In this document: positions 8,258-57,034 of the stretch, in pieces | Numbering within the stretch: position 1 is the first letter of the stretch | Layout of the letters: the number at the start of each line of letters is the position of its first letter | Assembly: GCA_001817065.1 (NCBI GenBank) | Contig: MHHQ01000025.1 | Span: 119,777-183,776 of the forward strand | Direction of reading: 5' to 3' | DNA length: 64,000 bases | Origin: Candidatus Andersenbacteria bacterium RIFCSPHIGHO2_02_FULL_46_16 | Lineage (GTDB): Bacteria; Patescibacteriota; Andersenbacteria; UBA10190 | Program-made: the position numbers and the translations under genes | The notes under the pieces: generated by a model | The model's database searches: none | Seen by the model: the letters and a program-made list of their open reading frames with translations, nothing else | Told to the model about the DNA's origin: nothing

Positions 8258-8505
8258 CTTAGGCGCCATCCAAAAATAACTTGGCCAGATCTCGTTCAAT
8301 ATGCGTCGAGATACGGCTTTTCCAATTGCCTGCCGGCCATAGCTTTCTTGACCACCGTAGCTTTAGCGAAGGTGGTAGCGACGGCTGGAGCGAACCACTC
8401 ACCGTAGCCAAGCTACGGTGAGTGGTTCGTGATTGAAGAAAAATCGTAAATTGGTGCATAGTGAACGAGAGATGGTCAAGTTATTTTGAGACGGTGACTT
8501 AAGCT
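8258..8505. mobile_element. MITE-like element B copy 1, with about 35-bp terminal inverted repeats and internal hairpins
   Basis: The inverted ends are cttaggcgccatccaaaaataacttggccagatctcg at one side and cgagagatggtcaagttattttgagacggtgacttaag at the other. The internal stem gaaccactcaccgtag/ctacggtgagtggttc is 15 bp and perfect. There is a second copy at 56767. The element fills the whole divergent intergenic gap between the gene that ends at 8232 and the gene that starts at 8511. Confidence 0.75.
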
Positions 8506-8510
8506 TATTT

Positions 8511-10973
8511 ATGATAGCACGCTTTAATTTTGCATATATAACAGGCTTACTACTTATCGTTGGCTCTGGGCTGGCTGCCCTGTTTCTTTTATTGTCGCCA
8601 TCTTTGCCTGAATGGGGTATTCGGCATACCCCGCACAATGAACCAAAATACCTCCCGCTGGTTCCCGAGCAAACTGTTGAACAAACTTTCCTTTTTGAAC
8701 AGCCCTTGCTCGACGGTGTGGCCATTTGGTTCCATCCCACTTCACCCTTGCCGGAAGAGGGGACTCTCAACTTAACCATTTTCACTAAATCTGGTAATTA
8801 CACGTCCAACTTACCAATCACTGATATGTCCCCAGATGGGCTGGCTATCTTCATCTTCTCTCCAGCCATCCCTGCTCGCATCGACCAACCAGGCACGATT
8901 CGTATATCCGCTACCAATACTTCATCGCGTCTTTTTTTGACCTATCAAATAGATGCGACAAAATATCCCGAAGGCCAGTTATATTATTCGCCCAACCCAA
9001 CTAAAGTCGGCGACCTGGCTTGGCAAATTCGCTACCAGCGCCCCGCCCTCAGCACTTCCCTAATTCAATGGTTATACATAATCATTCTAATATTGGCCGG
9101 GTTAGCATCTGCTCTCATTCTAATTTATATTTCCCGCTCCCCTCATACCACAGATAGTTCCGTTACACGAGAACCAAGTCATCTCGCCTCTAGCCACCTT
9201 TCCTCTCCCCACCAAACATCCCCTATCCCGCTAGCCTGGCGGAAATCGCTTGTGCCTTGCCTACTAACCTTCAGCGTCTTTCTTTTTTATTCTTTTCTGT
9301 TGATTCGACCCGGCACTTGGATTGGCCCCTCCGATTTTAGCAAGGAATTAAGTTATGTCACTGCCTCTGCCGAGGCTCTACGGTCCTTTTCTTGGCCTGT
9401 TTGGAGCCACTACACCTGCGGTGGCATGAGCCTCTTGGGTAATCCCGAGAGCACCACCCTCAGTCTTAGTACGTTATTAGCTCTCATCACTTCTCGCCCT
9501 GAGCTTTCCCTTTGGTTAACTTTAGCCTTGGAAGCCAGTATTGCTAGCCTCGGCACTTTTCTTTTAGCCCGTGCTCTTCGTCTTTCTACACCTGCCAGCC
9601 TGCTCTCTGCGGTGATCGTCTCCTTATCCGCTGTGCTCCCTTACAAAATTGTTGAGGGCATCGTTATGGTTGCCGGTCCCGTAGCATTCACGCCGTGGGT
9701 TTTATTGTCTTTGCACCAGTCCATCAAATCACCGTCTCCTGCCTGGCTTTTATTGGGCGGGATAACCTTATCTGCTATTTTTTGGCGCGGTGATGTCCAT
9801 ATTATTATCGGGGTGATAACTATAATGCTGTTGTGGTCAATCGCAAGCGCCTTGAGGCAGCGACTCCTCATGCCTCTACTTGTTCTGCTGACCATTCTGT
9901 TGATCACTTTCCTGGGTGCCAGCATTAAGGCACTGCCATATCTTGAGCAAATACCACTGATCAACGCCCAAGTGGATCCTCATAGCGCACAAATCACTCA
10001 GCAAAGATTATGGTCGGACATTTTTCTTCACGCTTATGACCGCTCGCACAAAATTCCAGTTCTCCACGGCTTACCAGAACATTTTGGTTACTTCGGCGCT
10101 TATGTAGGAATAATCCCCCTGTTTCTGGTCTTGCTGAGCTTATTTTCCCGCCACCCTTGGCGCCGTCTCGGCTGGTTGCTCCTTCTAATTTCTTTATTAC
10201 TCGCTGACGGTTTCTTATACGAGCATGTCCTTAGGTACCTCGGCCCTCTCTCTTCGCTGCTGCGTATGCCTAGCCGTTTACTGACTATCTCCGTTCTGGT
10301 CATCGCCTTACTTGCTGGATTAGGATTCGACCGACTACTTCAGGCTACTAGTCATCGTCAAAATGTTGCGCGAGCACGTTTTACCTGGCTGCTGATCTGC
10401 CTTATTTTCCTTGTTTTTCCTGCCTATGATTTATCTCGCGTCACTTCATCAATCCTACAACAATACTTATCACAGCGAAGTTTTACCGTCTTGCCTCCTC
10501 CCACTACTCCCACCCTCGTGGCACATTTAAATAGTTCCCCCGGCAACCAAAAACACGCCTCCACTTTGCTGCAAGCAGGTTTTCTGCTGCCTCACCTCTG
10601 TGGCGATCAAAATAATCCACCAGAATTTTTGTCCAAAATTACTGATTCGGCCACGCTCACTGATTATCCGACCATTATATCTCCCAACAAAATTACTATC
10701 TATCAACCGCCCACCCACGCTAACGTCAACATACGCTCGCGCTTTGTTTCCTCCTGGCAACCCAGCGCCGGCACACTCATTGCAGCTCCCGACCAGTCGA
10801 TACAGCTAATTACTCCCGCTAACAGCCTTCCCTCAATTCAATTACAATATCAATCAGCGACTATCCGTTCCCAGCAAATATTGCTAATTACATTTTGTGC
10901 CCTCGCCATTCTTATGATTAGTCACTTTATCTACTTAATATTCCCCATCTTTTTTAACTGGCGCCATGCTTAA
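8511..10973 (+). CDS. Large polytopic membrane protein, YfhO-like (GT-C superfamily candidate)
   Basis: The ORF is 820 aa with many TM segments. It overlaps the clear YfhO homolog downstream by 8 nt, which suggests translational coupling. Confidence 0.5.
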   Translation: MIARFNFAYITGLLLIVGSGLAALFLLLSPSLPEWGIRHTPHNEPKYLPLVPEQTVEQTFLFEQPLLDGVAIWFHPTSPLPEEGTLNLTIFTKSGNYTSNLPITDMSPDGLAIFIFSPAIPARIDQPGTIRISATNTSSRLFLTYQIDATKYPEGQLYYSPNPTKVGDLAWQIRYQRPALSTSLIQWLYIIILILAGLASALILIYISRSPHTTDSSVTREPSHLASSHLSSPHQTSPIPLAWRKSLVPCLLTFSVFLFYSFLLIRPGTWIGPSDFSKELSYVTASAEALRSFSWPVWSHYTCGGMSLLGNPESTTLSLSTLLALITSRPELSLWLTLALEASIASLGTFLLARALRLSTPASLLSAVIVSLSAVLPYKIVEGIVMVAGPVAFTPWVLLSLHQSIKSPSPAWLLLGGITLSAIFWRGDVHIIIGVITIMLLWSIASALRQRLLMPLLVLLTILLITFLGASIKALPYLEQIPLINAQVDPHSAQITQQRLWSDIFLHAYDRSHKIPVLHGLPEHFGYFGAYVGIIPLFLVLLSLFSRHPWRRLGWLLLLISLLLADGFLYEHVLRYLGPLSSLLRMPSRLLTISVLVIALLAGLGFDRLLQATSHRQNVARARFTWLLICLIFLVFPAYDLSRVTSSILQQYLSQRSFTVLPPPTTPTLVAHLNSSPGNQKHASTLLQAGFLLPHLCGDQNNPPEFLSKITDSATLTDYPTIISPNKITIYQPPTHANVNIRSRFVSSWQPSAGTLIAAPDQSIQLITPANSLPSIQLQYQSATIRSQQILLITFCALAILMISHFIYLIFPIFFNWRHA

Positions 10974-13740
10974 AAAGTTACCTCGCTCCGATCAATTCGC
11001 TATATTGTCACTCCTTACCGCTTGGTTAGCTTTCTTCAGCCGCACCCTCTCCGCCCAACTGGTCTACCTCTTAGATGACTTAAAAATTATTTATTACCCC
11101 CTGGAATCAATTTATGCTTCTTTTCAACACGCGAACCAGCTTCCGCTCTGGAGTCGTTTTTTTGGTTTCGGCCAGCCGCTGTTAGCCTGGGGGCAGCTGG
11201 GATTTTTTAACCCCCTCCATCTACTGTTGCGTGCTTTTCATGTCCCACCAATCACGCTCCTACAAATCTCCATCCTCGCTTATTTCGCTTTAGGTTGTGC
11301 TGGCATGTATATTTTTCTACGTCAACAAAAGCTTTCTGCTGCCTCCGCCAGCCTGGGCGCATTTGTGTTCACGTACGCCGGTTTTCATGTCGGCCACCTA
11401 AACCACGTCAATTTCTATACCGCTACAATGCTACTGCCATGGCTGCTCCTTTCCTTACATTCTCACATAACGCGACCTGGGATCCGCCACACCTTACTTA
11501 CTACCCTTGTTGCGGCTACCATCGCCCTCAGCGGCCAACCCCAAGTTGTTCTCTATACTTTTCTGCTTGCTGCTATTTGGTTTGTAATATTAATCCTAAA
11601 ATCAAAACACCCGATCCGCGCATTTCTCTTCACTATATTATTAGGACTGTTATCGTTAGCCTTAGCTGCACCAGCCGTCCTCCCACTTGCTGAATTTTTA
11701 CCTATTACCGAACGCGCTTATGGCATCAGTCGCGCAGAAATTCTTGAGTTTAGCTATCCGCCCACTCACGCTATCACCTTACTTTTTCCCTATTTCTATG
11801 GTGATCACAGCTATTACTGGGGCGCGAAGAATTTTCAGGAACTCGCTGCTTATACCGGCATCATTCCTTTACTTCTGATCGGAGCTGCCTTTTTCTCTCG
11901 GCACCGCGCTTTACAGTTATTTGGCATATCCGCCTTGATTGTTGGCATATTGTTTGCCTTAGGCCAATATTCTCCGCTGTATCTATGGCTGGTTAATTCT
12001 GGTGTCATTAAATCTTTATCCATCCCTGGTCGATTTACCCTCTTTTTCGTCGTTGGTGTGGCTATTCTAGCACCCCTGGGTTTAGACACCTTGCGCCATA
12101 TTATAGGCTGGAAAAAAATTATCACGCTTCTAGTGAGCCTTTCCGTAGTTAGTCTGCTCTTTACGCCATTTGTTGCTCTGCTTTATAGTAACCAGAATAT
12201 TTATCGGCATTTCTTATCATTGTGGAATTTCTCCCAGCCTGAGCCGCTTCTCATTATCATTGGTTTTTTCCTCTTTCTACTTGTTTTCTTTTTGCCACTT
12301 CGCCGACATAAACTCAATTTGCTGCCATGGATACTTTCTTTCTTCGTTGCTCTCACTCTTATTATTTATGGCTGGGCATACAATCCGCTCACGAGTACTT
12401 CTATCGCTTACCAGCCATCACCGTTTAATGACGCGCTGCAATCTTTTTTCCGTGAACATAATTCCCCGCCCCGTATTTACCACGTTGACCACCCCTCTAT
12501 TTCCGCTCGCCGCCACACGGAATCTATCGCCCCCTTATTCACTGTTATTCAGCCAATTATTGCCCCTAGTTCCTCCTTATCGTGCTTCACCGTCCCCTAT
12601 CAGCTCAGCAATAATTTTATAGCCGGTTCATTGGTGGAGGCCTCGTTAACTAGAGTACCCGACCCAACTCCTTTGTCCTCCGTAACCATTGACCCCAGCA
12701 CCCTGAACGGCACTCAGTTTACCCTTTGTTTTAAACCAATCGATACCAAACCAGGTGAAAATTTTTTGCTACAGTTTACTAGCGCCGAAGATAGCGGTTT
12801 CCATTTAATTTACCAGCCATCCAGCTTTACTGATCAGCAAGCCTTCGTAATTCGTGTCCCCAATCCCACGGCCGCTCAGCTCGCCCAATCCAAAAAACCC
12901 ATCAGCATTTTAGCCTCCCCCTCCAACAACCAATCGGCTGACTTGTCAGCCTTGCGACTTGACCGCCACATCAATGCTACTACTTCTGCCAGTTCGGCTA
13001 ACTGGATTGGCGCCTTGTCTATAAAAGCTTACCGTAGTTTTGTTACCTCTTTGCTGGATGACGACATTGATCCAGTTCACTATGACAGTCAGTCGATCAT
13101 TACTGATCGGCGGCAATTCATCAATTTAGCCGGCGTTACCCATGTAGTTGAGCAAGCCATCACTGACACAGACTACAGCTATCTCAGCTCCTACGCTTTC
13201 CGTCTCGTTTCTACTTCCACGATAGACAACACTGTTCTTCGCCTCCATCAAAACTCAGCTGCTTTTCCAAAAGCCTGGCTGGTCAAACAAGCTGTCTTCT
13301 CGCCCGTCGACGACGAAACAATCAGTGCCATGCGCCGGCCTGATTTTTCGCCTTTGGAGCTAGTCTATATTTATGGACCCACCCCCCCTCAAACAATGGC
13401 TGCTGCAAATCCTGCACCGCTCGATAGTCAAATTTCTATCACTCGCTATGAAGATACCATCATTGACCTAAAGGTAACCACCAACCAATCAGCTTGGCTA
13501 GTGTTCAATGACTCTACTACGCCTGCCTGGCATACCTACATTGACGATCAACCTGTACCTCATTACACTGCCTTTTCTCTGTTTAAAGCCGCTCAAGTGC
13601 CAGCCGGCCAACATACCGTATCTTTCCGCTACGAATCAGACGCCACAAATATGTCCGTCAACCTGGCTGCCGCATCTTTGCTCATTATCATCGTTCTCTT
13701 TGCCTTATCCGGTACCGATACTTTCGGAAAAAATAATTAA
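10966..13740 (+). CDS. YfhO-family membrane protein (GT-C glycosyltransferase candidate)
   Basis: The N-terminal pattern YYPLESIYASFQHANQLPLWSRFFGFGQPLLAWGQLGFFNPLHL is YfhO-like. The protein is 924 aa with a multi-TM core and a C-terminal extracytoplasmic domain. Confidence 0.65.
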   Translation: MLKKLPRSDQFAILSLLTAWLAFFSRTLSAQLVYLLDDLKIIYYPLESIYASFQHANQLPLWSRFFGFGQPLLAWGQLGFFNPLHLLLRAFHVPPITLLQISILAYFALGCAGMYIFLRQQKLSAASASLGAFVFTYAGFHVGHLNHVNFYTATMLLPWLLLSLHSHITRPGIRHTLLTTLVAATIALSGQPQVVLYTFLLAAIWFVILILKSKHPIRAFLFTILLGLLSLALAAPAVLPLAEFLPITERAYGISRAEILEFSYPPTHAITLLFPYFYGDHSYYWGAKNFQELAAYTGIIPLLLIGAAFFSRHRALQLFGISALIVGILFALGQYSPLYLWLVNSGVIKSLSIPGRFTLFFVVGVAILAPLGLDTLRHIIGWKKIITLLVSLSVVSLLFTPFVALLYSNQNIYRHFLSLWNFSQPEPLLIIIGFFLFLLVFFLPLRRHKLNLLPWILSFFVALTLIIYGWAYNPLTSTSIAYQPSPFNDALQSFFREHNSPPRIYHVDHPSISARRHTESIAPLFTVIQPIIAPSSSLSCFTVPYQLSNNFIAGSLVEASLTRVPDPTPLSSVTIDPSTLNGTQFTLCFKPIDTKPGENFLLQFTSAEDSGFHLIYQPSSFTDQQAFVIRVPNPTAAQLAQSKKPISILASPSNNQSADLSALRLDRHINATTSASSANWIGALSIKAYRSFVTSLLDDDIDPVHYDSQSIITDRRQFINLAGVTHVVEQAITDTDYSYLSSYAFRLVSTSTIDNTVLRLHQNSAAFPKAWLVKQAVFSPVDDETISAMRRPDFSPLELVYIYGPTPPQTMAAANPAPLDSQISITRYEDTIIDLKVTTNQSAWLVFNDSTTPAWHTYIDDQPVPHYTAFSLFKAAQVPAGQHTVSFRYESDATNMSVNLAAASLLIIIVLFALSGTDTFGKNN

Positions 13741-13747
13741 TGTTTGC

Positions 13748-17876: not shown

Positions 17877-18014
17877 ATTATGTTAGTATACGCTATCTCC
17901 CTTTCGCACCAACGGCCTAACTATAAAATGCTTGCCCTATCTTACTCAACACCACTCATCCCCATTAACAACACCGTTGAGATACGCCAACAGCAATCTC
18001 ATTCGAAATGCTAT

Positions 18015-23138: not shown

Positions 23139-23164
23139 ACTAAAGAACCTTCCTGCCTATGGAA

Positions 23165-23330
23165 GTCACATTATGAAATGCCACAAATATAGTGACGGGC
23201 CCTGTCGGCGCTGCACCCCCACCCGACGGCTTCGGCCTGCCAGGCGGGCAGCCTGCAGGCGCTCGGTGGGGGTCCCCCGCGCCGCCACCCGTTTATTTAA
23301 GAGTGGCATTTCATAATGTGACATCTATAT
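23165..23330. repeat. Repeat family A copy 2, divergent and shorter, in the same orientation as copy 4
   Basis: gtcacattatgaaatgccac...ggcgctcggtgggggtcccccgcgccgccacccg...gtggcatttcataatgtgac. Confidence 0.65.
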
Positions 23331-23528
23331 ATCACAAGTAGTGTATTAATTTTCGCATCGGCTACCGTCTAAGCATTAAAGATTGACAACGAATATGATA
23401 AGTTATTTAATGCATAAGCAAAACTCTCGCTTGTTCTTCTCATCGCTAATAAATACACGCCAACCTTTGGTCACCAAAGCAAGCTTACCAATTCGTGTTT
23501 TTGTCGTAGCTATCAGGAGGATTATGCC

Positions 23529-24110
23529 ATGCTATCTGACATTCGTGTGATTGTGCGAGAGCCAATTACTAGGCAAGATATGAGGGAAATCGTTGCTGTC
23601 GAACAAGCCTCCCATATACTTGCCCGTTCAAAAACTGAAATATTCAAGAAGGATAATTATATTCTGTTGGCTGACTATCGAGGCCACGTGGCAGGGTATA
23701 TGATATTTCGCCTTTATGGTAATCGCGCCTTTCTCGACGACATTGTAGTGCTCCACGATAAACGAGGAAAAGGAGTCGGTACGCAAATGATACAAAGACT
23801 CATTTCCCTAATCACTTCCGTGCGTGATGGATACACAGAAGATAAGAGCGACTCTAGAGCAATCAGCAATATCAGATACCGGATGGCTAGTCAACTCTGT
23901 AGCGGCATCGACTTATATTTGCGAGAAACAAACATGCTTGCGATATACTTCTTTAGCGGCTTGGGTTTCGAAGCCAGGAACGTATTGCGTAATTTCTATG
24001 ATAAGCCCAGAGACACAGGAGAGGATGCTTACACTATGCATCTGTGTCTTAGACCTCACCCAATCCAGCCATCTATTCTGACCAATCGCATAAGTCAATA
24101 TTTTCGCTAG
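23529..24110 (+). CDS. GNAT N-acetyltransferase, a RimI-like paralog with an internal insertion
   Basis: VREPITRQDMREIVAVEQASH...HDKRGKGVGTQMIQ. It has its own SD (caggagga). Confidence 0.65.
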   Translation: MLSDIRVIVREPITRQDMREIVAVEQASHILARSKTEIFKKDNYILLADYRGHVAGYMIFRLYGNRAFLDDIVVLHDKRGKGVGTQMIQRLISLITSVRDGYTEDKSDSRAISNIRYRMASQLCSGIDLYLRETNMLAIYFFSGLGFEARNVLRNFYDKPRDTGEDAYTMHLCLRPHPIQPSILTNRISQYFR

Positions 24111-24123
24111 TTCTTTCTTCCGC

Positions 24124-24165
24124 CCCTGTACTCGCTAAGTGTACCGGGGTTATTTTTTATTTTTC
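24124..24165 (+). terminator. Rho-independent terminator
   Basis: cccctgtac/gtaccgggg stem (8 of 9 bp) followed by ttattttttatttttc. Confidence 0.55.
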
Positions 24166-24166
24166 A

Positions 24167-24227
24167 CCAAAATTAGTGATCCCGCCCTTGGCACGACGCA
24201 CATTTTGAGTGAAAAATAATCCGCCGG
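24167..24227. repeat. Direct-repeat motif C copy 1, about 60 nt
   Basis: ccaaaattagtgatcccgcccttggcacgacgcacattttgagtgaaaaataatccgccg is about 85% identical to 24844..24904. Confidence 0.55.
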
Positions 24228-24843
24228 AGTCCGCCATATTGGCAAACGAAGATGGATACCATGAATGTCACGTGCTATATCTTAAAACTTCCCGCCTAAT
24301 TCTTAATAAACTCATCAACTAAACAAATAAGAGCGCCTTCGGCGCACCATGAATTCTGAGCGAAATAATAACCCCGCACTAACATTACCTTCTCAGTCAA
24401 ACATTACTCAAAGGAACCATCAAATTAAGTAACCGCTAGCGCTATGCGCGGGCTTCATGAGCCACTCCTTTACCTCGTCCGATCTTGTACTATTATATCA
24501 AACTGCATTCGGCAAAATCTAAGTCCCTTTCTATATCCGCACAGTGCGTCAACGTTCCTTACAATGTTTATTACTTTTGTCGACAGAACACTAAAGCGAA
24601 TGCATTAAATATCAGTTCACCCCACGTATTTTAATTAAATCAGTCCATTTATCTCTTTTTATGGGCTTAGCATAAGCCCTAAACAAAGTTATCCACCAAA
24701 TTCTGTCAAAATCATTTGACATAATCATTGGCGCTGCTACTATTAAATTATCAATTCGTTCTTTATTTCTCTCTTAGAGCCTTACCCTTCACTTTTCCTC
24801 TTTTTACTCTCTTCCTCCTAGGCTCTTTTCTTTTTGTTTTTCT

Positions 24844-24904
24844 CCAAAATAAGTGATCCCGCCCTTGGCGGGACACGCATTTTGACAGAAAAACAATCCG
24901 CCGT
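24844..24904. repeat. Direct-repeat motif C copy 2
   Basis: ccaaaataagtgatcccgcccttggcgggacacgcattttgacagaaaaacaatccgccg. It contains the hairpin cccgcc-ctt-ggcggg. Confidence 0.55.
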
Positions 24905-25112
24905 AACCCTGAGCGAATTCGAAGAGCGAAGCTGAGGGTCCATTTCTTATCGCAATACTAGGTCAGCCTCACAAACCCATGTGTTTGGTGGAAGGAATGA
25001 TGGTTTATTCAAGCTTGCTCCTTCTTTCCATAATCAACTATAACGTGTGTAACGTCATCATTTTAAGCCTTGTTGTTTTTACGTTTTTCGCTTTACGTTT
25101 TATCTTTTGCAT

Positions 25113-26630
25113 TTATTTCGGATTTAAGAATTTATCACCACCCTCAGGCAGAGTCCCGCCCGAGGCGGAAGGATTTCGGATTTCACTATTCCCATTCACA
25201 CAAAAGAATTTCAAACCACGACATCCCTGCGGAACTTCCAGGTCGTTGCATGTACCTTCTTGTATCATCCGATAACTAACTAAATAATCAGCCTGGCTAG
25301 GGTCTTCTTCGCTCGCCACATCAAACCCTCTATTACCCCGGCTTAAATAGATCAATCTATTCCTGATATGAATGTCATCGGCATAAACCGTACCAGCTCC
25401 AGTCACACAATTCTCTAGCTCCTTTGTCTGCACTAAATCAGTTGCCTTGTTTGTTCGATTGCCTATAGAAAAATCATTATTGCTTCCACCTGTTTCCCGA
25501 TACACCCAGCCAACCTGCCAGACCATCCACCCTGTTAATAAACCAGCGATCACTACGGCCATTCGGTACGACCATTGTCTGTCTTCAAGCCATGACCTGA
25601 CTATTGACCACCATCCCCAACCAGCCATCGCCCATAGTGATAATACTAGAGGCACAAAATAACGCAGTGTAAATCGGTCAATCATAAACATTAATACTAT
25701 CAGCTGTCCTCCCATACCCAGAACCCAAGCCCAAGTTAATGGTTTTCGCCAATTCATCAACCACGCTATGCCAGCCAAGATCATCACTATGCCTGTTATT
25801 AATAACGTATCGCGACGTTTCAATTCAGCGCCGGTATAAGCCGCTATATAAGACGAACCAGACACTACCATTGGCATTAGTTGGGGTAAGGCTTTCCATC
25901 TCTCTTCCGCCGCGCTCGCCACCATTGTCAGATCGCCCTGGTCTTCCTTCATATTCATTAGCACTAACGCTTGACTGCCAAATCCAAACGTACCACCAAC
26001 TAGTACCATTATTGCTCCTAACACAAATTCCTTCGCTTTAATTTTCCTCTCTTTAATACGTGCCACCCCCATTACCACTACCCCCACCGCGATACCAGCT
26101 GCCGCTCCGGTAAATAGAATATGGTTACTTAACCCTAACCCACCGACTATTCCGACCCACCACCATTTAAATCGGCCTCTAGTAGCGACTATCGCGATAA
26201 TCAACAACGTAAAAAAGGGGATCAAGGTTATCGCCCAACCTAATCGTTGATATAAAATGTATGCTGGTGAGAACAAACCGGCCGCCACCGCTATCATCCC
26301 GCCGTGATCATCGCCGGCTTTTCCCGCTAAGCCGACCGCCAGCCAAAACAGTATTACTGAAAAGATAAACATCACCACCCTCAACGCCAGCGCATCATAA
26401 CCAAATATCAGCACAAACGGGATCCTCAAGTAATCAATTAACGGCCCGATATATGACCGCTCTCCAATTAGCACCAATCTTCCCGCCTGCTGTATCTGAT
26501 ACGAATTTTCTCCTTCTGACCCTTCGTCTCCCATTAATCCCGGCACCGATCCCAAGTAAGCTAAATTAACCGCTACAAATAGTATAAACAAAACCCACAC
26601 CCACTTTGATTGTCTGTGGAAGAAACTCAT
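25113..26630 (-). CDS. GT-C membrane glycosyltransferase (ArnT/GT39/GT83-like)
   Basis: About 13 TM segments. A GDEG motif lies in the first extracytoplasmic loop. The protein carries a C-terminal soluble domain. Confidence 0.55.
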   Translation of the reverse strand: MSFFHRQSKWVWVLFILFVAVNLAYLGSVPGLMGDEGSEGENSYQIQQAGRLVLIGERSYIGPLIDYLRIPFVLIFGYDALALRVVMFIFSVILFWLAVGLAGKAGDDHGGMIAVAAGLFSPAYILYQRLGWAITLIPFFTLLIIAIVATRGRFKWWWVGIVGGLGLSNHILFTGAAAGIAVGVVVMGVARIKERKIKAKEFVLGAIMVLVGGTFGFGSQALVLMNMKEDQGDLTMVASAAEERWKALPQLMPMVVSGSSYIAAYTGAELKRRDTLLITGIVMILAGIAWLMNWRKPLTWAWVLGMGGQLIVLMFMIDRFTLRYFVPLVLSLWAMAGWGWWSIVRSWLEDRQWSYRMAVVIAGLLTGWMVWQVGWVYRETGGSNNDFSIGNRTNKATDLVQTKELENCVTGAGTVYADDIHIRNRLIYLSRGNRGFDVASEEDPSQADYLVSYRMIQEGTCNDLEVPQGCRGLKFFCVNGNSEIRNPSASGGTLPEGGDKFLNPK

Positions 26631-37849: not shown

Positions 37850-37893
37850 AATAATTATTATACTATGTTCTGCCCCCAGTAGACTCTTTCATT

Positions 37894-41136: not shown

Positions 41137-41388
41137 TACTAAAAATAGATTAAGGACACACTGTAAACCTTATTAATAGCCATGTCAAGCCATAGTCTTG
41201 TGCAGGGCAATCGCATTGAATTGAGGGCTCAAATAGGGCTGCGAAAGCAAAGGGGTGATTTTCGTCCTGCTCAGAAAATAAGCAAACTTGCTCCGATTGG
41301 TCCCTAAGCCATTAATTGCAGTGCGATTGCCCTGTAGTCTTGTGAGATCGTACGTTCATACTTATTTACAATTTTACGTAATATAAAA

Positions 41389-41587
41389 ACATCACATCAT
41401 GAAATGTCACTGCAGAATAAGCGGGTGGCGGCGCGGGGGTCCCCCACCGAGCGCCAGCAGCCCTGAGCTTGTCGAAGGGCGATGCCGTCGGGTGGGGGAG
41501 CAGCGCCGACAGGCCTGCCAGCCGCAGCCATAGCGAAGGCTGGACCCGTTTTTTGTCTGGTGACTTTTCATGATGTGACACCTATAG
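41389..41587. repeat. Repeat family A copy 3
   Basis: Its roughly 160-nt core is the exact reverse complement of copy 4. Confidence 0.85.
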
Positions 41588-41686
41588 TAATAGTAATTAT
41601 TGCTTAAAAAAAACTCCTCGTAGAATTAAATCTATTAAGGAGCACAATGCGCCCTGAAAAAAATTCGTGACCAACAACATCTTGTA

Positions 41687-44228: not shown

Positions 44229-44350
44229 AAATAAATATTTTGCCAATCAACACCCCAAAGCCATATTAACATATCCCTCCCTCCCGTAAATGGAGCCCCA
44301 TCCCGCCCCCTGGGTGGGCTAGCGAAATCCCGCGTAGCAGCCAACTATAG

Positions 44351-44548
44351 ACATCACATCATGAAAAGTCACCAGACAAAAAACGGGTCCAGCCTTCGCT
44401 ATGGCTGCGGCTGGCAGGCCTGTCGGCGCTGCTCCCCCACCCGACGGCATCGCCCTTCGACAAGCTCAGGGCTGCTGGCGCTCGGTGGGGGACCCCCGCG
44501 CCGCCACCCGCTTATTCTGCAGTGACATTTCATGATGTGACACCTATA
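44351..44548. repeat. Repeat family A copy 4, inverted relative to copy 3
   Basis: 100% identical to the reverse complement of the core of copy 3. Confidence 0.85.
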
Positions 44549-44977
44549 TCTGCCCCACTTGCTCCACAACCCTCCTTACTCACGAAGCTTTGAATGGCAG
44601 CGCGGGGTTATCCCATTCCTTGTCGGCCAAAGCCTTGGCGACGGTTGATTCATCCACCCCCCCGCCACCGGCGGGGTGGTTTTCTGCGCCATGGGATAAA
44701 AAAAGCTGGCTTTCCAGCTTACAGACCAAGCAGTAGTTTTATTAATGAAGACAGTCCTCCAAACACTGCTGCAACTACTGCTACGACAAATATAAATCGC
44801 ACCCCTTGATCACTGACACCATCCGTCATTACTACTTTAGTTTCCTGCTTACTTTTCCTTCTGTTTACACTCCTTCGCGATAATTTTGACCAGTCCGGCT
44901 TCCGCTGTCGTTCCCCATCTTGACGTGACAATTTTCATCTCCTTTCAAAAGAACCAAGCTGTCGCTACTAGTTATTT

Positions 44978-50850: not shown

Positions 50851-50883
50851 TGTTATTTTAAGTGTTTAGTTTTAGCTTTTTCA

Positions 50884-51702
50884 TTAGCTGCCCAACTCTT
50901 CCATCGCCATCTCGTATTGTTCTAGTGTTATTGCTCCGGCGTGCCAATGTTCGCTGTTTTCCATGAACGACACTCCTTTGCCTCGAACGGTGTGTGCAAT
51001 AATCACCGCCGGTTTCTTTATCCGCTGCGCCTTTACTAACGCTTTCCATATTGCCTTCAAATTATGTCCATCAATCTCCTGTACCTGCCACCCAAAAGCC
51101 CGGTACTTGGCGGCTAACGGATCCAATGTTGGCATAACTTTTTTAGTAAAACCATCAATTTGCATCCCGTTCTTATCCACCAGGGCAACCAGATTATCTA
51201 GTTTCTCTTTCGGCGCATACATGACCGCCTCCCATGTTGACCCCTCCTCTTGCTCGCCATCACTCATCATCACATACACCGATCTCTTATCGTTCTTTCT
51301 TAATTTACTTGCCAAAGCTAAACCAAGCCCCACCGACAACCCTTGGCCCAAACTGCCTGACGATATTTCCACCCCAGGTAAAGACCCCCGATGTGGATGC
51401 CCCTGTGCACCAGCGCCTAGTTGCCTCAGCTTCTTCAGCTCTGCTTTCGGAAAATAACCCCGCTCTGCTAAAACAGCGTACAAAGCTGGACAAGCGTGGC
51501 CATTGCTTAATATAAAATAATCTCTGTTTTCCATATCTGATTTTACCGGATCGTGCCTCAGTAAGCCGCTAAAAAATAATGTGACTAACAAATCCATGCC
51601 AGACAAAGAGCTACCCGGATGCCCAGACTGCGCTGCATACAACATTTCAATTACCTGCTTCCGCAGCCCTCGAGCCTTTTCTTCTAAATGTTTAACGTCC
51701 AT
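50884..51702 (-). CDS. Transketolase N-terminal subunit (TPP-binding)
   Basis: SGHPGSSLS...GSLGQGLS..GLALA...MSDGEQEEG. Confidence 0.8.
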   Translation of the reverse strand: MDVKHLEEKARGLRKQVIEMLYAAQSGHPGSSLSGMDLLVTLFFSGLLRHDPVKSDMENRDYFILSNGHACPALYAVLAERGYFPKAELKKLRQLGAGAQGHPHRGSLPGVEISSGSLGQGLSVGLGLALASKLRKNDKRSVYVMMSDGEQEEGSTWEAVMYAPKEKLDNLVALVDKNGMQIDGFTKKVMPTLDPLAAKYRAFGWQVQEIDGHNLKAIWKALVKAQRIKKPAVIIAHTVRGKGVSFMENSEHWHAGAITLEQYEMAMEELGS

Positions 51703-51807
51703 ATGTAAACATTATACTTTATCAACCATCCTACTATGAACATTTGCTTTTTCAAGGTCACACCACCACGCCTGGCCCTCTCCCCCCAAATATCCCCAAT
51801 CAATTAA

Positions 51808-52263
51808 TCATCTTGGCTTTACCGTCCAGTCAAAACTAATATTTGCATCATCATGCGCCAATCTAAACTCATCCTGCGGATCGTAAACCCGTGTCGTGGC
51901 ATACACTAGCCAAGCCGGCTCGTTGCCCAATACTTTATAACCATGCACCACTCCGTGCGGTATAAATAAAGTAACCGGCTTATGTTCTCCCATGGTTATT
52001 ACTTGCGTTATACCTTTAGTTGTTGCCGCCGCTCGCTGATCAAACAACACCGCCTGAATCATCCCTTTCATACAATACCATAAATCGTCCTGCTTTTCGT
52101 GGTAGTGGAAAGCCTTTATAACTCCCGGATAACTCATGGTCGTCGATAACTGCGAAACACTCTCTAAAACACTTTCCTTAGTTCGAAAGATTTCTCGAAA
52201 AAAGCCTCTGTCATCAGGCATAGTCTTTATTCCTTCCACCACTACACCTTCAATTTCACCCAT
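51808..52263 (-). CDS. rmlC: dTDP-4-dehydrorhamnose 3,5-epimerase-like protein (RmlC family)
   Basis: PDDRGFFREIF...GVIKAFHYH...MKGMIQAVLFD. The start is moved to MGEIEG. Confidence 0.6.
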   Translation of the reverse strand: MGEIEGVVVEGIKTMPDDRGFFREIFRTKESVLESVSQLSTTMSYPGVIKAFHYHEKQDDLWYCMKGMIQAVLFDQRAAATTKGITQVITMGEHKPVTLFIPHGVVHGYKVLGNEPAWLVYATTRVYDPQDEFRLAHDDANISFDWTVKPR

Positions 52264-52337
52264 TTTAGGAGCCTCCTTCCGTCTCTTTTCCTTGCCCTCT
52301 CTAGTTGTGCTATTTGCCATAATATATTCCTGCTTAC

Positions 52338-52715
52338 TTATTTATCTTGCTGTATTAATAAAAATTCGTCTAGTCGTTGTCTGGCCAGCTCTTTATGATC
52401 TTCTAATGACCATCCCTGCCTATCTCCTTCGCCTGACTCTTCCACTCCCATCATATCTCTAACCACATCTGCCCCCAACTTACTCTCGCCAACTACTCTG
52501 CTTTGCCCCATCTGTTCGTCACTGTCTGCCAAAGAAGCATTGGCCGTTTTCTGCAAAATAAACAAAGCATAAATACCCGCTGCTACTACCACCGCAAATA
52601 CCAATTTTCGCTCTCCCCATCCCAAGGTATAACCAATGCTCCAACCTATCACACTACACACCACCCCCCACAAAACGATTGCTAATATTCGGTATGTTTT
52701 AGCTTTAAATTGCAT
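52338..52715 (-). CDS. Small membrane protein with 2 TM helices (hypothetical)
   Basis: Hydrophobic N-terminal half and an acidic C-terminal tail. Confidence 0.35.
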   Translation of the reverse strand: MQFKAKTYRILAIVLWGVVCSVIGWSIGYTLGWGERKLVFAVVVAAGIYALFILQKTANASLADSDEQMGQSRVVGESKLGADVVRDMMGVEESGEGDRQGWSLEDHKELARQRLDEFLLIQQDK

Positions 52716-52766
52716 ATTGTTTAGCTGCCTAATCTAACCTTATTCTGCGTCTAATGCAATACTTGA

Positions 52767-54632
52767 CTAATTATTATCATTCTTGAGCACTTCTATATAT
52801 ACTTTAGCTGGAATTTTAATGGTTGCCATGCCAGCCATTTTCTTCTTCCCTTTCTTTTGTTTGTCCAGTAGCTTTCTCTTTCTGGTAACATCTCCCCCAT
52901 ACAAATGCCCGGTGACATCCTTACGCATCGCCGATAACGTCTCTCGTGCCACCACGTCGCCACCCACCGCCGCTTGCAGGGGAACAGCAAACTGCTGCTT
53001 CGGTAAAACCTTTTTCAATCTTGCTACCATCCGCCGGCCTGTTCTCGCTGCTGCCTCACGCGGCACAATCACAGATAACGCTTCCACCACATCCTTGTTC
53101 ACCAGCATCTTCAATTTAACCACCTCCGCAACGTGCCAATCCCCCATCTCATAGCTCAGCGAGCCATAACCAGCGGTCACCGACTTCAATTGGTCATACA
53201 GGTCTACGACCAATTCCCTAAGCGGCATAGTATATTTCAGCATTACTCTTTCGGAACCAATATAATCCTGACTAACCAGTTCTCCTTCATTTTGTTTAAA
53301 CAATTCAAACACTGCCCCCATAAATTTCTTGGGCACAATAACTTCCGTCAGCACAAACTGTTCCTCCACTTGTACAATACTTGATCCATCCGGCCACTCC
53401 GCCGGTGTTTGTACCTCCCGGACCGTTCCATCAGATATTTGTACCCGATACAAAACGCTCGGCGTAGTCACCACCAGCTCCACGCCCCACTCACGCTGTA
53501 GTCTCTCCTGCACAATCTCTAAATGCAGCATTCCCAAAAAGCCACAGCGAAAGCCTCGCCCTAACGCCTCACTTTGCTCGGCTTGCACTTGCAAACTGGC
53601 ATCATTTAACTGCAATTCCTCTATCGCCTCCCGTAACTCTGGAAAATTATCTCCGTCCGCCGGATAAATACCGGCAAATAACTTAGGCTGGGGGACATCA
53701 AAACCAGGCAATGCTGTAAGCTTAGCCTTATCTTCTGCTCGTACCACCGTATCGCCTACCCGAGCTTGTCTGACATCTTTCAATCCGGTAGCAATATAAC
53801 CAATGTCTCCGGCCATTAAACTTTCCGCCTTCTGCCACTGCGGTTTCATCACACCTACTTCTACTGCATTATCTTTCATATCCGTTCCCATGAAAGATAT
53901 TTGATCACCACCTTTTATTGATCCCTCCACCACGCGCACATAAGCCACGACGCCCTTATATTCATCATAGATCGAATCAAAAATCAAAGCGCGCAACGGT
54001 TTCTCCTTGTCCTGTTTAGCAACCGGCACACGTTTGACTATTTCTTTAATAACCTTTTCTACCCCCTGGCCTGTCTTCGCCGAGATTGTTAAAATATCAT
54101 CACCCCTGCCGCCAATTAAATCGACGATCTCTTGTTTTACTTCATCAACCTGCGCTGCCGGCAAATCAATCTTATTTATTACCGGTATAATCTCTAAGCC
54201 AGCCTCAACTGCCAGATATAAATTGCTGATTGTTTGTGCCTGCACGCCCTGCGTTGCATCTACCAGCAGCACTGCTCCCTCGACGGCTTGTAAACTGCGC
54301 GACACCTCATACTGAAAATCTACGTGTCCCGGCGTATCAATTAAATTCAATATATGCTCATGATTTCGCGAATCTGCATCCGCCACATTCTCAGCGGGTA
54401 TCATTGGTGTCTCAGTGCTATCCAGCACCTCATCCCAAAGCATTGTTACCGGCTGTAATTTGATGGTAATTCCCTTCTCGCGCTCCAGGTCCATCTGATC
54501 CAGCAGCTGGTCGCGCATTTTTCGCGCTTCCACGGTATGGGTTAATTCCAGCAGCCGGTCTGCCAAGGTAGATTTACCGTGGTCAATATGCGCTACAATG
54601 CAAAAATTATGGATATTTTTCCCTTTCATCAT
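52767..54632 (-). CDS. lepA: Elongation factor 4
   Basis: IHNFCIVAHIDHGKSTLADRLL...ITIK GTPase motifs and the LepA-specific C-terminal domain. Confidence 0.9.
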   Translation of the reverse strand: MMKGKNIHNFCIVAHIDHGKSTLADRLLELTHTVEARKMRDQLLDQMDLEREKGITIKLQPVTMLWDEVLDSTETPMIPAENVADADSRNHEHILNLIDTPGHVDFQYEVSRSLQAVEGAVLLVDATQGVQAQTISNLYLAVEAGLEIIPVINKIDLPAAQVDEVKQEIVDLIGGRGDDILTISAKTGQGVEKVIKEIVKRVPVAKQDKEKPLRALIFDSIYDEYKGVVAYVRVVEGSIKGGDQISFMGTDMKDNAVEVGVMKPQWQKAESLMAGDIGYIATGLKDVRQARVGDTVVRAEDKAKLTALPGFDVPQPKLFAGIYPADGDNFPELREAIEELQLNDASLQVQAEQSEALGRGFRCGFLGMLHLEIVQERLQREWGVELVVTTPSVLYRVQISDGTVREVQTPAEWPDGSSIVQVEEQFVLTEVIVPKKFMGAVFELFKQNEGELVSQDYIGSERVMLKYTMPLRELVVDLYDQLKSVTAGYGSLSYEMGDWHVAEVVKLKMLVNKDVVEALSVIVPREAAARTGRRMVARLKKVLPKQQFAVPLQAAVGGDVVARETLSAMRKDVTGHLYGGDVTRKRKLLDKQKKGKKKMAGMATIKIPAKVYIEVLKNDNN

Positions 54633-54674
54633 GACAGGAACATATCACGGCCTTCCTCTTAAAGCAAAGAAAAA

Positions 54675-54747
54675 GGCCACTTGTGTGAAAAGTATAGATC
54701 AGCCTTAACTAGGCTAACCTTACTGATCTGCTTTTACGCAAGTGGCC
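54675..54747 (-). other. Long nested hairpin in the lepA 5' leader
   Basis: Outer stem ggccacttg...caagtggcc and inner stem agatcag...ctgatct. Confidence 0.3.
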
Positions 54748-55135
54748 ACAAGAACAGCGTCGACAGGAGCTCACTTTATAGCTACGGGGGTACACCAAAG
54801 TATCTCATGTTCGGTTCCTTTTGCTGGGGATTGGGCACGACGCAAGCTGTCTACAAAATCCCAATCATACTCTGGGGTCTCCTATTAACGCTTAAAGAAC
54901 CAGGGACTTCTACAACATTTGAATTTATATCACTCGATATATCTGTCAACTAAACCCAATTTTCTTATTCACTTTTACTTTTCCTCTTTTCTCACTTCTG
55001 TTTTCTAACTTTAGTCCCTGGAATTTAAAATTACCGTCGCGTGTGTCTGTAATGTATGTTGCTGATTTATTATAATTCGGAAAGTTTGTAAAGATTTCTG
55101 TCTTGTTTGTGTTTTTGTGACTATCTGTCTGCCTC

Positions 55136-56758
55136 CTATTCCGCCAATCCTTCCCACCTCGGTGTATCCGTCCCAGCCGGTATTTTTTTCAAAGCCGGTT
55201 TTTGCGGCAAATATTTCCTAAGCACAATGATTTCTTCGCTCTTCAGTAACCAAGTTAACAGTAAATAAACTGCCACTCCGCCACTGCCTGCAACCACTAA
55301 CTGCATCAATACTCCCCAAAACCGTTGCATGTCAACCACCGCTGCCACAGGATATTTCAATACCTGCACCATCATCCCGCCTCCCAAAGCGGCTAAAACA
55401 ATTTTGACTAAGCTTAATATCACCGCTTTGTCATCAAATCCCTTGAGCTGCCAATGCAGCACCCCTAACAGCAGCATTAAGTTCACAATCGCTGACGCTG
55501 AAAATGCTAAAGCTAACCCTTGCACTCCCATTATTGGTGCAAGATACAAAGCCAAACCAATATTTACGACCATACTAATGATCGATATTACCACGGGTGT
55601 CTTAGTATCTTGCTGCACATAAAAAGCTCGCACCAAGAGCGGTATGGTTGCTTGGGCAAAGATGCTTATGACCAGCCACCCGAACGTATCAAAAGTCAAA
55701 ATCGTATCCTCCCAGTCGAACGCACCATCGCCAAATAATACCCGGATAATTTGCGCTCGCAGTAAAAAGAAAAAGAGCGATGTTGGTACCACCAAAAACA
55801 TAATATAGCGAAATATTCTGGTCAATGTTCTGCTAAATTCAGCCTTTTGCCGTCTGGCTATTTGTTCGGCTAGAGTCGGAAAAGCTGCTTGCGCAAAAGA
55901 TATACCAAATATTCCTACCGGTAAATACTGCACATTGTTGGCTAAGTGAAATACCGCTATACTGCCCGCTAACATTGATGACCCAATCACCGTCACAGTC
56001 ACCAAGTTCACTTGCATCGCCGCTAACCCCACAATTCGCGGTAACATCATTCGCCACAATTTATGGAAATCATCCGTCGACCAGCCGACAATAGGTTTCC
56101 AGCGGTATCCCACCTGCCATATACTAGGTAGCTGCACCAGCATATGGGCTGCTGCTCCCAGCACCACGCCCCAAGCAATACCAACAATACCCATTATCGG
56201 CACGAACAGAAACACGCCAATGATGATACCCAGGTTGTATAATATTGGGGCTAGCGCATAAACCACGAAACGTTTATAGGAATTGAGCATGCCTGAAAAA
56301 ACAAAGCTAATGCAAAGTAGCACCGGTTGCAAAGCCATGGCTTTAGACAGCATGATAGTCAGCGCTAATTTTTCCCCGCCGAAACCAGGTGTTATAACCG
56401 GCACAATCTTGTCCGCCAGTAAAAAATATACCCCCGACATAAGACCTACTACTATAACGATCGCATTGAGCACCGAGGTAGCAAAATCAAACGCCTGCTT
56501 CTCACCTTTCTTACCTTGAACCAATTTTTCCGTAAATATTGGTATAAACGCCGCCGATAACGCTCCTAGAACTATCAGATTAAATATTAAATCGGGTACA
56601 CGAAAAGCGGCCACGAATGCATCGAACACATCCCCGGCGCCAAAAGTGGTGGTGAGCACTCTTTCTCTAACTAGTCCAACAAAGCGGCTTAGCAAAGAGG
56701 CCGTCCCTAATATTATGGCTGCCGGGATAACCCGGCCATTCCCAAAATTTTGCGGCAT
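55136..56758 (-). CDS. murJ: Lipid II flippase MurJ (MviN; MOP superfamily)
   Basis: LLSRFVGLVRERVLTTTFGAGDVFDAFVAAFRVPDLIFNL is MurJ-like at the N-terminus, followed by about 14 TM helices. Confidence 0.8.
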   Translation of the reverse strand: MPQNFGNGRVIPAAIILGTASLLSRFVGLVRERVLTTTFGAGDVFDAFVAAFRVPDLIFNLIVLGALSAAFIPIFTEKLVQGKKGEKQAFDFATSVLNAIVIVVGLMSGVYFLLADKIVPVITPGFGGEKLALTIMLSKAMALQPVLLCISFVFSGMLNSYKRFVVYALAPILYNLGIIIGVFLFVPIMGIVGIAWGVVLGAAAHMLVQLPSIWQVGYRWKPIVGWSTDDFHKLWRMMLPRIVGLAAMQVNLVTVTVIGSSMLAGSIAVFHLANNVQYLPVGIFGISFAQAAFPTLAEQIARRQKAEFSRTLTRIFRYIMFLVVPTSLFFFLLRAQIIRVLFGDGAFDWEDTILTFDTFGWLVISIFAQATIPLLVRAFYVQQDTKTPVVISIISMVVNIGLALYLAPIMGVQGLALAFSASAIVNLMLLLGVLHWQLKGFDDKAVILSLVKIVLAALGGGMMVQVLKYPVAAVVDMQRFWGVLMQLVVAGSGGVAVYLLLTWLLKSEEIIVLRKYLPQKPALKKIPAGTDTPRWEGLAE

Positions 56759-56766
56759 AGACGAAT

Positions 56767-57034
56767 CTTAGGCACCGTAAATAAATAACTTGACCAGATC
56801 TCGTTCAATCTGCGTCGAGATACGGCTTTTCCAATTGCCTGCCGGCCGTAGCTTTCTTGACCACCGTAGCTTTAGCGAAGGTGGTAGCGACAGCTGGAGC
56901 GAAATACGAAGCGCAGTACTACGGTAAGTGTTTCGCGATTGCCTGCCGGCCGTAGCCTTGGCGAAGGCTGGAGAAAAAGTCGTAGATTGCATAGTGGGCG
57001 AGAGATGGTTAAGTTATTTATTTACGGTGACTTA
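56767..57034. mobile_element. MITE-like element B copy 2, with an internal partial duplication
   Basis: Terminal inverted repeat ends cttaggcaccgtaaataaataacttgaccagatctcg and cgagagatggttaagttatttatttacggtgacttaa. It abuts murJ, whose start is 8 nt away, and its terminal taa is the stop codon of the 57032..59923 ORF. Confidence 0.75.

Follow-up and report, generated by a model that had tools for sequence, protein, structure and literature searches.

What are the two related repeats that fill gaps between neighboring genes in a stretch of 64,000 nucleotides (the window) from Candidatus Andersenbacteria, a CPR/Parcubacteria lineage, and do they provide the adjacent genes with a stop codon, promoters and ribosome binding sites (RBS)? 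An earlier note on this DNA had answered with a MITE-like element that supplies the stop codon and probably the rest. Both copies were confirmed at the places it had named. Their boundaries were set from empty sites and a family alignment, which shifted the exact limits slightly (8262-8498 instead of 8258..8505, and 56771-57031 instead of 56767..57034). The features at the two loci, with TSD standing for target duplication, are the following:

7525..8232, minus strand: left neighbor of copy 1, a hypothetical protein without Pfam match; orthologues share its start, the ATG at 8232
8228..8255, plus strand: ancestral promoter-like sequence TTCATA-16-TACAAT, 3 nt left of the insertion point of copy 1 (consensus scan; same hexamers in the element-free loci L032-L036)
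8259..8261, plus strand: left TSD of copy 1 (TTA); the element-free L032-L036 have a single TTA in ...tacaattac TTA atctactct ATG
8262..8498, top strand on plus: MITE copy 1, 237 bp, the 177-bp backbone with one nested module (family alignment; not in orthologous loci)
8328..8387, plus strand: 60-nt palindromic nested module of copy 1 at backbone site 1 (ATT^GAG; family alignment)
8499..8501, plus strand: right TSD of copy 1 (TTA), 9 nt 5' of the ATG at 8511 (empty sites and family alignment)
8511..10973, plus strand: right neighbor of copy 1, an 820-aa hypothetical membrane-type protein without Pfam match
55136..56758, minus strand: murJ (lipid II flippase; Pfam MurJ, E = 6e-90), start codon 9 nt from the left TSD of copy 2
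56768..56770, plus strand: left TSD of copy 2 (TTA; TAA on the gene strand); the empty L028-L031 have one TAA, then 9 nt, then the murJ ATG
56771..57031, top strand on plus, antisense to the DUF4012-murJ operon: MITE copy 2, 261 bp, the backbone with two nested modules
56837..56896, plus strand: 60-nt nested module of copy 2 at backbone site 1
56941..56970, plus strand: 30-nt nested module GCCTGCCGGCCGTAGCCTTGGCGAAGGCTG of copy 2 at backbone site 2 (ATT^GAG)
57032..57034, minus strand: right TSD of copy 2, the TAA stop codon of the DUF4012 gene
57032..59923, minus strand: 963-aa DUF4012-domain protein (Pfam DUF4012), C-terminus intact

Copy 1 and copy 2 are 90% identical over the first 150 nt and 84% identical at their right ends, and the window contains 4 occurrences of the 20-nt arm core AATAACTTRRCCAKMTCTCG where 0.02 are expected. 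With the corrected limits the filling of the gaps stood and the spacer lengths changed: copy 1 is separated from the start codons by 26 nt on the left and 9 nt on the right (previously 25 and 5 nt), copy 2 from that of murJ by 9 nt (previously 8 nt). The start of the left gene of copy 1 is the ATG at 8232, not the GTG at 8241.

Close relatives (75-93% protein identity) carry empty sites at both loci. The empty copy 2 site reads ...GACAGAT-TAA-GATTTGTCT-ATG(murJ), the empty copy 1 site ...TACAATTAC-TTA-ATCTACTCT-ATG, and in both cases insertion has added the element and one further TTA/TAA to the empty sequence. This identifies the element as a mobile MITE that duplicates a 3-bp TWA target. Its proposed identity as a MITE is borne out by the presence/absence polymorphism at both loci, the TSD, the terminal inverted repeats (TIRs) and many copies elsewhere: a direct TTA flanks each copy, as had been looked for at the element boundaries, and the empty alleles contradict a conserved non-mobile region lacking such polymorphism. 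Two other target duplications were ruled out by the empty sites, namely a 4-bp TTAG, since these sites read TTAA and the G is part of the element, and a TA as in IS630/Tc1-like elements. The ancestral gaps measured 9 nt at the copy 2 site and 38 nt in the divergent spacer of copy 1; the element does fill entire gaps, but only because these were so short.

The relatives also preserve the ancestral 3' end of the DUF4012 gene, which the earlier note had hoped to recover from genomes without the element, and it is the same as at the filled site: the C-terminus aligns identically to element-free orthologues through ...GMVFARTTD*. These orthologues share the final residues and the TAA, which contradicts the supposed truncation or replacement of the C-terminus. 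The terminal taa of copy 2 is indeed the stop codon of this gene (57032-57034, minus strand), but it is duplicated target and was not donated.

The MITE family is specific to Candidatus Andersenbacteria and comprises at least 24 distinct copies in genomes and metagenomes (a Rifle-type genome, the MAG SZUA-179, GCA_003501005.1 and several metagenomes), with insertion sites differing between related strains. Matching 3-nt flanks, either TTA..TTA or TAA..TAA, were found in 19-20 copies, non-matching ones in four (L037, L040, L050, L051). Among near-identical copies the flanks can switch between TTA and TAA, e.g. in L047 compared with L038/L052. The target logo is symmetric with the consensus C-TWA-G (C at -1 in 11/23, G at +1 in 14/23). 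For copy 2 (w2) as well as L037, L042, L046 and L002b the TSD is the stop codon of the flanking ORF. L046 at first looked like an insertion of its own within murJ, but corresponds to the copy 2 locus, with about 52 nt deleted and a foreign right flank, possibly on a chimeric short contig.

The backbone has a length of 177 bp, with the ends GGCRCC...GGTGAC; the copies span 150 to 321 bp and canonical copies 183 bp. Nested palindromic modules of 24-60 nt are optionally present, with the sequence patterns CCTGCC...GGCWGG and ...GAGCGAAGTCGAAGG... The 60-nt module at site 1 is found in copy 1 (w1), copy 2, L040, L045 and L046, is truncated in L042 and does not occur in the canonical 183-bp copies. 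The 30-nt module at site 2 is found in copy 2, L037, L040, L041, L046 and L055, not in copy 1 or canonical copies, and occurs also in a second family of the window, MITE family A (579-608, 41514-41543, 44389-44418). The internal partial duplication ascribed to copy 2 is real as far as the repeated stretch ATTGCCTGCCGGCCGTAGC is concerned, but this stretch represents the independently present or absent 30-nt module. The element has no coding capacity, and its internal ORFs are spurious: when a 74-aa ORF within copy 2 was used as bait, all 3 proteins retrieved were other copies of the element, including 2 new loci. No match to Rfam 15 reached the gathering score in the whole window; at E <= 1 both copies gave sub-threshold miRNA-type hairpins only, and ARAGORN detected no tRNA or tmRNA.

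The TIRs of about 35 bp and the strong internal hairpins that had been described were both recovered. The outer helix consists of 35 pairs, conserved over 20 copies, and pairing runs on through the whole backbone, which forms a single hairpin of 70 pairs with 96% of cells paired; its arms of about 65 nt each are consistently unlike each other and pair along the entire element. Copy 1 folds with -129 kcal/mol (z = -13.9), and copy 2 reaches z = -6.4. Double-sided changes were observed in 22 pairs; shuffles gave 12.1±1.7 and slid controls no more than 5. Since the copies are related, these counts do not represent independent events. G·U is the majority pair in 11 columns and tied 10:10 with C·G in a twelfth; A·C is the majority pair in none. 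The top strand folds more stably in 22/22 copies, by about 30 kcal/mol. Local mutational bias was rejected as the source of this asymmetry, since it would yield A·C on the C-rich strand and the asymmetry is common to the whole family. An element moved by plain double-strand cut-and-paste would not be expected to show such covariation or G·U pairs confined to one strand.

The orientation of the copies on the chromosome is equally strict. Considering copies as informative when the flanking |GC skew| was >= 0.09, we found the better-folding strand on the C-rich chromosome strand in all of them (20-21 of 20-21), the skew in top-strand orientation being negative for every one. MITE family A of the same window shows mixed orientations. 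The direction of neighboring genes was rejected as a determinant: copies lie both sense and antisense to their neighbors, while the skew predicts every case. The C-rich strand is probably the lagging strand; this polarity (G-rich as leading strand) is an assumption based on the strand bias of the genes in the window. The lock may stem either from oriented insertion coupled to replication or from the loss of oppositely oriented copies. Together with the strand-specific fold, this skew-linked orientation is not expected for a plain cut-and-paste MITE.

We are confident that both repeats belong to one non-autonomous DNA transposon (MITE) without coding capacity, which duplicates TWA, possesses a hairpin backbone and is locked in its orientation. 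Insertion at T-W-A duplicates 3 bp, which suggests a staggered cut of the DDE type like that of IS5-family/PIF-Harbinger (‘Tourist’-type) elements, for which a TWA target duplication is the rule; the TSD is the single feature that suggests the DDE/IS5-like assignment. No autonomous partner was detected: in every genome or metagenome hit the arms either lay within 330 bp of each other or were truncated by the end of the contig, the gene tables of the fetched loci list no transposase Pfam family, a scan of viral contigs gave no match to the element, and the 2.7 kb between two inverted copies of family A contain sugar-nucleotide enzymes and no transposase.

The failure to find a DDE transposase, the whole-length hairpin with its compensatory changes, the G·U pairs on one strand only and the strict orientation to the strand skew would also fit mobility as a single strand: an HUH-type or other enzyme would move the folded top strand at replication forks to sites 3' of TTA/TAA, the right TTA being the element's own and no true duplication. 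IS200/IS605 elements are replication-locked in their orientation (PMC5371812). However, we regard this mode of movement as quite unlikely. The element has long TIRs, its 3-nt flanks match on both sides and its target logo is symmetric. Moreover, the TTA and TAA flanks of near-identical copies switch together, for which HUH guides would need matching changes, and the location of the better-folding strand on the C-rich strand, the presumed leading-strand template, is opposite to the IS200/IS605 rule.

It had further been argued that the promoters of the divergent gene pair must lie inside copy 1, an argument that fails with an ancestral gap of only 38 nt. Consensus scans of both copies revealed neither terminators nor outward sigma-70-like sites in the conserved element. 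The sole promoter-like site is a hybrid, TTGAGA-18-TATGAT, at the right end of copy 1, whose -10 overlaps the ATG and uses the variable subterminal segment; copy 2 contained none in the same scan. The ancestral TTCATA-16-TACAAT beside copy 1 may function as a promoter. A supply of RBS did not hold up either: the 9 nt 5' of both ATGs are ancestral flank and contain no Shine-Dalgarno motif with or without the element, a motif missing from most genes of the window. On the basis of these scans, neither a promoter nor an RBS can be shown to come from the element. It is very improbable that we are dealing with a host regulatory or structural RNA region (structured UTR, sRNA, processing site) or with a domesticated MITE supplying promoters, RBS or a stop codon: the strand-specific covariation resembles selection at the RNA level, some bacterial MITEs, e.g. 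Correia, bear promoters (PMC10969869), and there is the hybrid site of copy 1, but relatives have empty sites, the neighbors of the copies are unrelated and lie in either sense to them, Rfam gives no match, and both the stop codon and the 9-nt leaders predate the insertion.

For a TWA-duplicating transposon the two loci may be read as follows. The host genome is very compact, and therefore surviving insertions are located in tiny spacers or exactly on TAA stops. At the DUF4012-murJ junction copy 2 hit the TAA, 9 nt before the start of murJ, and the duplication rebuilt the stop, so that the protein remained unchanged. Copy 1 hit the 38-nt divergent spacer, 9 nt before the start codon and 3 nt past the probable -10 box. 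The 820-aa gene would probably have acquired a long structured leader in this way, and a structured spacer of 265 nt would probably break the tight DUF4012-murJ junction. Copies later gain the small nested palindromic modules.

The element resembles Tourist/PIF-Harbinger and IS5-family elements (IS1031/ISL2/IS427-like) in its 3-bp TWA TSD, the near-palindromic C-TWA-G target, the TIRs, the ends starting with GG and the existence of small non-coding derivatives. In contrast to these, no cognate transposase or full-length IS was found here, the long unlike arms (about 65 nt) are paired throughout and the orientation strictly follows the skew. With the classical bacterial MITEs (Correia/NEMIS, ERIC, RUP, Chunjie, Nezha) it shares the nature of 100-300-bp intergenic repeats with TIRs and TSDs. 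Those are co-transcribed with their neighbors as long RNA hairpins, often between operon genes (PMC2229807, PMC10969869); however, most duplicate TA, and Correia has demonstrated outward promoters and an IHF site, none of which were found here.

Orientation biases related to replication are documented for Tn7/TnsE, IS200/IS605 and several IS families (PMC5371812). IS200/IS605 and their PATE derivatives likewise consist of strand-specifically folded DNA whose orientation follows the replication direction (PMC5371812, PMC5027513), but they lack TIRs and target duplications, have subterminal hairpins only and integrate 3' of a fixed tetra- or pentanucleotide, and the active strand of IS200/IS605 is on the lagging-strand template, whereas here the better-folding strand is on the other strand (skew polarity assumed). 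The TnsE pathway of Tn7 and beta-clamp-binding IS transposases combine DDE transposition with a strong orientation bias set by the fork (PMC5371812). They are large and autonomous and use dedicated targeting proteins, in contrast to a 177-bp MITE with no protein identified; nothing similar is known for an element of this kind. The attC sites of sedentary chromosomal integrons are also imperfect palindromes whose recombinogenic strand is kept on one replication template, modulating hairpin extrusion (PMC5371416), but they are recombined by an integrase in cassette arrays and are not dispersed elements flanked by TSDs.

What is new here is the whole-backbone hairpin with covariation, the strand-specific fold and the orientation lock. 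In CPR bacteria, whose genomes are tiny, few mobile elements have been recognised. Our literature search turned up no description of a MITE family from this group; a single paper contained both terms, and it dealt with diversity-generating retroelements. Speculatively, and with rather little expectation of being right, we propose that a strand-specific mechanism coupled to the replication fork acts on the folded top strand, or that a polar transpososome reads the fork, by means of an enzyme unrecognised in minimal CPR genomes, and that the nested 20-60-nt palindromic modules form a second layer of smaller mobile hairpins riding inside MITEs. If true, either mechanism would fix the orientation of a TIR- and TSD-bearing MITE on each replichore.

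For the annotation of these loci the results imply a correction: the DUF4012 gene is complete, and the element should not be taken for a promoter cassette. When a MITE targeting TWA inserts into a TAA stop codon, the stop is regenerated, which would allow cost-free lodging in a genome with almost no intergenic DNA. Element-free sister strains represent natural controls, with which the effect on the coupling of the DUF4012-murJ operon and on the near-leaderless promoter is testable. The link between orientation and skew could inform on transposition or hairpin stability in relation to replication in these organisms, and the orientation of the element could mark the direction of replication in fragmented CPR assemblies.

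The two family B copies in the window are, as the earlier note had it, related repeats with inverted arms. Copy 1 and copy 2 can be aligned end to end in a pairwise alignment, and the repeat finder gave 90% identity over 150 nt, 84% at the right ends, and inverted arms of 44-62 nt. Four occurrences of the 20-nt arm core were counted in the window, where 0.02 would be expected by chance. All four neighboring genes were confirmed:

7525-8232, minus strand: hypothetical gene, left neighbor of copy 1
8511-10973, plus strand: 820-aa hypothetical gene, right neighbor of copy 1
55136-56758, minus strand: murJ, neighbor of copy 2
57032-59923, minus strand: 963-aa DUF4012 gene, neighbor of copy 2 (stop codon 57032-57034)

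Comparison with orthologous loci, which the earlier note had proposed, shows that family B is mobile: the closest relatives lack the element at both sites. In contigs with DUF4012 orthologues of 93% and 76% identity the element is absent and murJ starts 9 nt past the stop codon; the empty copy 1 sites come from orthologues of the 820-aa protein (75-81% identity).

Copy 2, empty, gene strand: ...GACAGAT TAA GATTTGTCT ATG
Copy 2, filled, window: ...GACAGAT TAA (GTCACC...261 bp...GGTGCC) TAA GATTCGTCT ATG
Copy 1, empty: ...TACAATTAC TTA ATCTACTCT ATG
Copy 1, filled, window: ...TACAATTAC TTA (GGCGCC...237 bp...GGTGAC) TTA AGCTTATTT ATG

Adding the element and one further copy of a 3-bp target to the empty site thus yields the filled site at both loci. 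This 3-bp direct repeat at the boundaries of both copies is the target-site duplication (TSD) that was also to be looked for.

One of the two target copies at copy 2 is the DUF4012 stop codon (57032-57034). The family B element went into this stop codon and regenerated it. The TAA at the element's edge does terminate DUF4012, but it is the duplicated ancestral target. Nor has the C-terminus been truncated or replaced: the window protein ends in ...GMVFARTTD* like its 93%-identical element-free orthologue, the 76%-identical one has a single substitution there (...FARATD) and the same end point; nothing was lost. The element does occupy the entire gaps, but only because the ancestral spacers measured 9 and 38 nt.

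The 9 nt upstream of the murJ and 820-aa start codons are ancestral in position and length, with one or two substitutions before murJ and a diverged sequence before the 820-aa gene (agcttattt vs atctactct). Neither stretch contains a Shine-Dalgarno motif in filled or empty sites, which speaks against a ribosome binding site contributed by the element. Most window genes lack this motif and several have, 7-15 nt ahead of their ATG, a -10-like box (TATAAT-like, e.g. at 37850-37870, 51703-51725 and 17877-17895); such boxes close to the ATG suggest that this organism has mRNAs with no leader or a very short one. Promoters within the element found no support either: a consensus scan of both copies detected no outward promoter in the conserved parts and no terminator, and the single hybrid match in copy 1 places its -10 on the ATG (copy 2: zero matches). 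Element-free loci conserve a TTCATA-16-TACAAT site whose end, at copy 1, lies 3 nt to the left of where the element inserted. The 820-aa gene is probably now transcribed through the element with a leader of ~250 nt, and the DUF4012-murJ junction would be split by a structured spacer of ~265 nt. The supply of stop codon, promoter and ribosome binding site, which had made the finding attractive, was mostly not borne out. At two other loci (L041, 2530-3087; L002, 6560-7552) the flanking ORF extends 17-20 nt into the element and then stops; here the element may really provide the last codons and the stop.

Family B copies longer than 183 bp contain discrete inserts at fixed backbone positions. Modules of this kind are 20-60-nt palindromes (CCTGCC...GGCWGG, conserved loop GYAGCYWTRGCGAAGG) nested inside families A and B:

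493-532, 579-608, 41514-41543 and 44389-44418: palindromic modules
8328-8387: 60-nt module, copy 1
56837-56896: the same 60-nt module, copy 2
56941-56970: 30-nt module, copy 2
L055 (locus outside the window), 9959-10251: palindromic modules

Both insertion sites read ATT^GAG, and modules are found in all combinations among family B copies. The 30-nt module is also present in three of the four window copies of family A and missing from the fourth. Hence the stretch of copy 2 that had been read as an internal partial duplication is a nested insert in its own right. In L055 a 20-nt palindrome lies within the 60-nt module, making the nesting three levels deep. Within the window these modules are exclusively MITE-internal; other types (TTTATCCTGAGCGMAGTCGAAGG) occur in loci L016, L018, L045 and L053.

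Family A, a second MITE-like family, has inverted ends of ~40 nt (TATAGACATCACATCATGAAATGTCAC...) and four window copies (405-658, 23158-23335, 41378-41588, 44339-44552). Two of them (41392-41588 and 44344-44540) are 98% complementary and flank 2.7 kb with an NTP-transferase and an epimerase, an arrangement that looks like a composite-transposon or inversion substrate. A 1-kb region without long ORF (24110-25113), with no Rfam or tRNA match, holds two 73-nt copies (24154-24226 and 24831-24903, 86% identical) of a third hairpin-forming repeat (TTTTTCACCAAAAT...ATTTTGAGTGAAAAA), the second adjoined by a GAGCGAA..CGAAG-type module. Short direct (81%, 15555-15627/17728-17800) and inverted (83%, 18969-19037/21656-21724) similarities between neighboring large genes are probably paralogous coding segments.

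Scanning one genome per species, we found the arm core repeated in SZUA-179, a second Andersenbacteria MAG; 18 further loci came from a metagenome scan and two more from a pseudo-ORF bait. The canonical copy comprises 177 bp plus two 3-bp flanks (nine distinct copies: L038, L047, L049-L052, L002b, L007, L009). Flanking triplets are identical on both sides in 19-20 copies, either TTA..TTA or TAA..TAA, and otherwise nearly identical copies carry TTA in one case and TAA in another; target reconstruction gives C-TWA-G. The duplicated triplet doubles as the stop of an adjacent ORF in five copies, as expected where a compact genome offers few TWA sites that can be hit without harm and TAA stops belong to them. 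The symmetric TWA target and 3-bp duplication presumably point to an IS5-family or PIF-Harbinger-type DDE transposase. Genome and metagenome matches and a viral scan yielded no transposase gene of that type and no long element with family B ends. By every defining feature that could be tested family B is a MITE; only an autonomous partner was not found in these scans. It is not a PATE, is unlike Correia promoter elements and matches no Rfam family. A full-text literature search returned no description of a CPR MITE family or of Andersenbacteria transposable elements (the one match for CPR was a paper on diversity-generating retroelements); family B is new.

Two variants were noticed. L046 (Ga0209212_1122815, 1-1540) is the copy 2 locus in altered form: ~52 nt, the murJ start codon among them, are absent beside the left end of the element, and on the right lies a different gene, with the TSD as its stop codon. 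Either two copies recombined or the short contig is chimeric. In SZUA-179 a ~60-nt derivative (L004, ~7560-7620) shows the left-arm core (AATAACTTGGCCATATCTCGTTCAC) as loop on a new 11-bp stem built from the two extreme ends, and appears to be an internal-deletion remnant.

The fold was analyzed on a 20-copy alignment of the backbone. The consensus structure has 70 pairs with 96% of cells paired. Changes affecting both partners were seen in 22 pairs; shuffles gave 12.1±1.7 and slid partners no more than 5. Since the copies are related, these changes are not independent events. G·U is the commonest pair in 11 columns (a 12th is tied 10:10 with C·G), A·C in none. The better-folding "top" strand exceeds its complement by ~31 kcal/mol as RNA and ~11 kcal/mol with DNA parameters, and is the more stable one in 22 of 22 copies. 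The subterminal segment exists in at least five different complementary versions and a few chimeras, e.g. copy 1.

GC skew in the window is very strong and uniform, ~-0.2 to -0.37 in all 2-kb bins apart from 22-24 kb (-0.08), with the same sign over plus- and minus-strand genes and no switch within 64 kb. The plus strand is also T-rich, and flanks of related loci show skew of the same magnitude. In every copy with flank |skew| ≥0.09 the top strand coincides with the C-rich strand; these are 20-21 distinct copies, drawn from three or more genomes (skew in top orientation -0.09 to -0.36; two-sided binomial P ~2e-6 by our own calculation); three copies with essentially skew-free flanks are uninformative. 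Gene direction does not explain this, since some copies are sense and others antisense to neighboring genes. In family A orientation is mixed (4 to 2). The G-rich strand carries the majority of window genes and is therefore probably the leading strand. If so, the better-folding strand avoids the lagging-strand template. Two explanations fit: insertion coupled to the replication fork in a set orientation, which Tn7/TnsE and several IS families are known to show (PMC5371812), or loss of copies exposing the stronger hairpin on the lagging-strand template, comparable to the orientation effect at integron attC sites (PMC5371416). An IS200/IS605-like single-strand mechanism is less likely, since family B has terminal inverted repeats (TIRs) and a symmetric target, and both flanks switch jointly between TTA and TAA. 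It is unusual for a TIR element that forms a TSD to combine a conserved, strand-specific fold with strict strand orientation.
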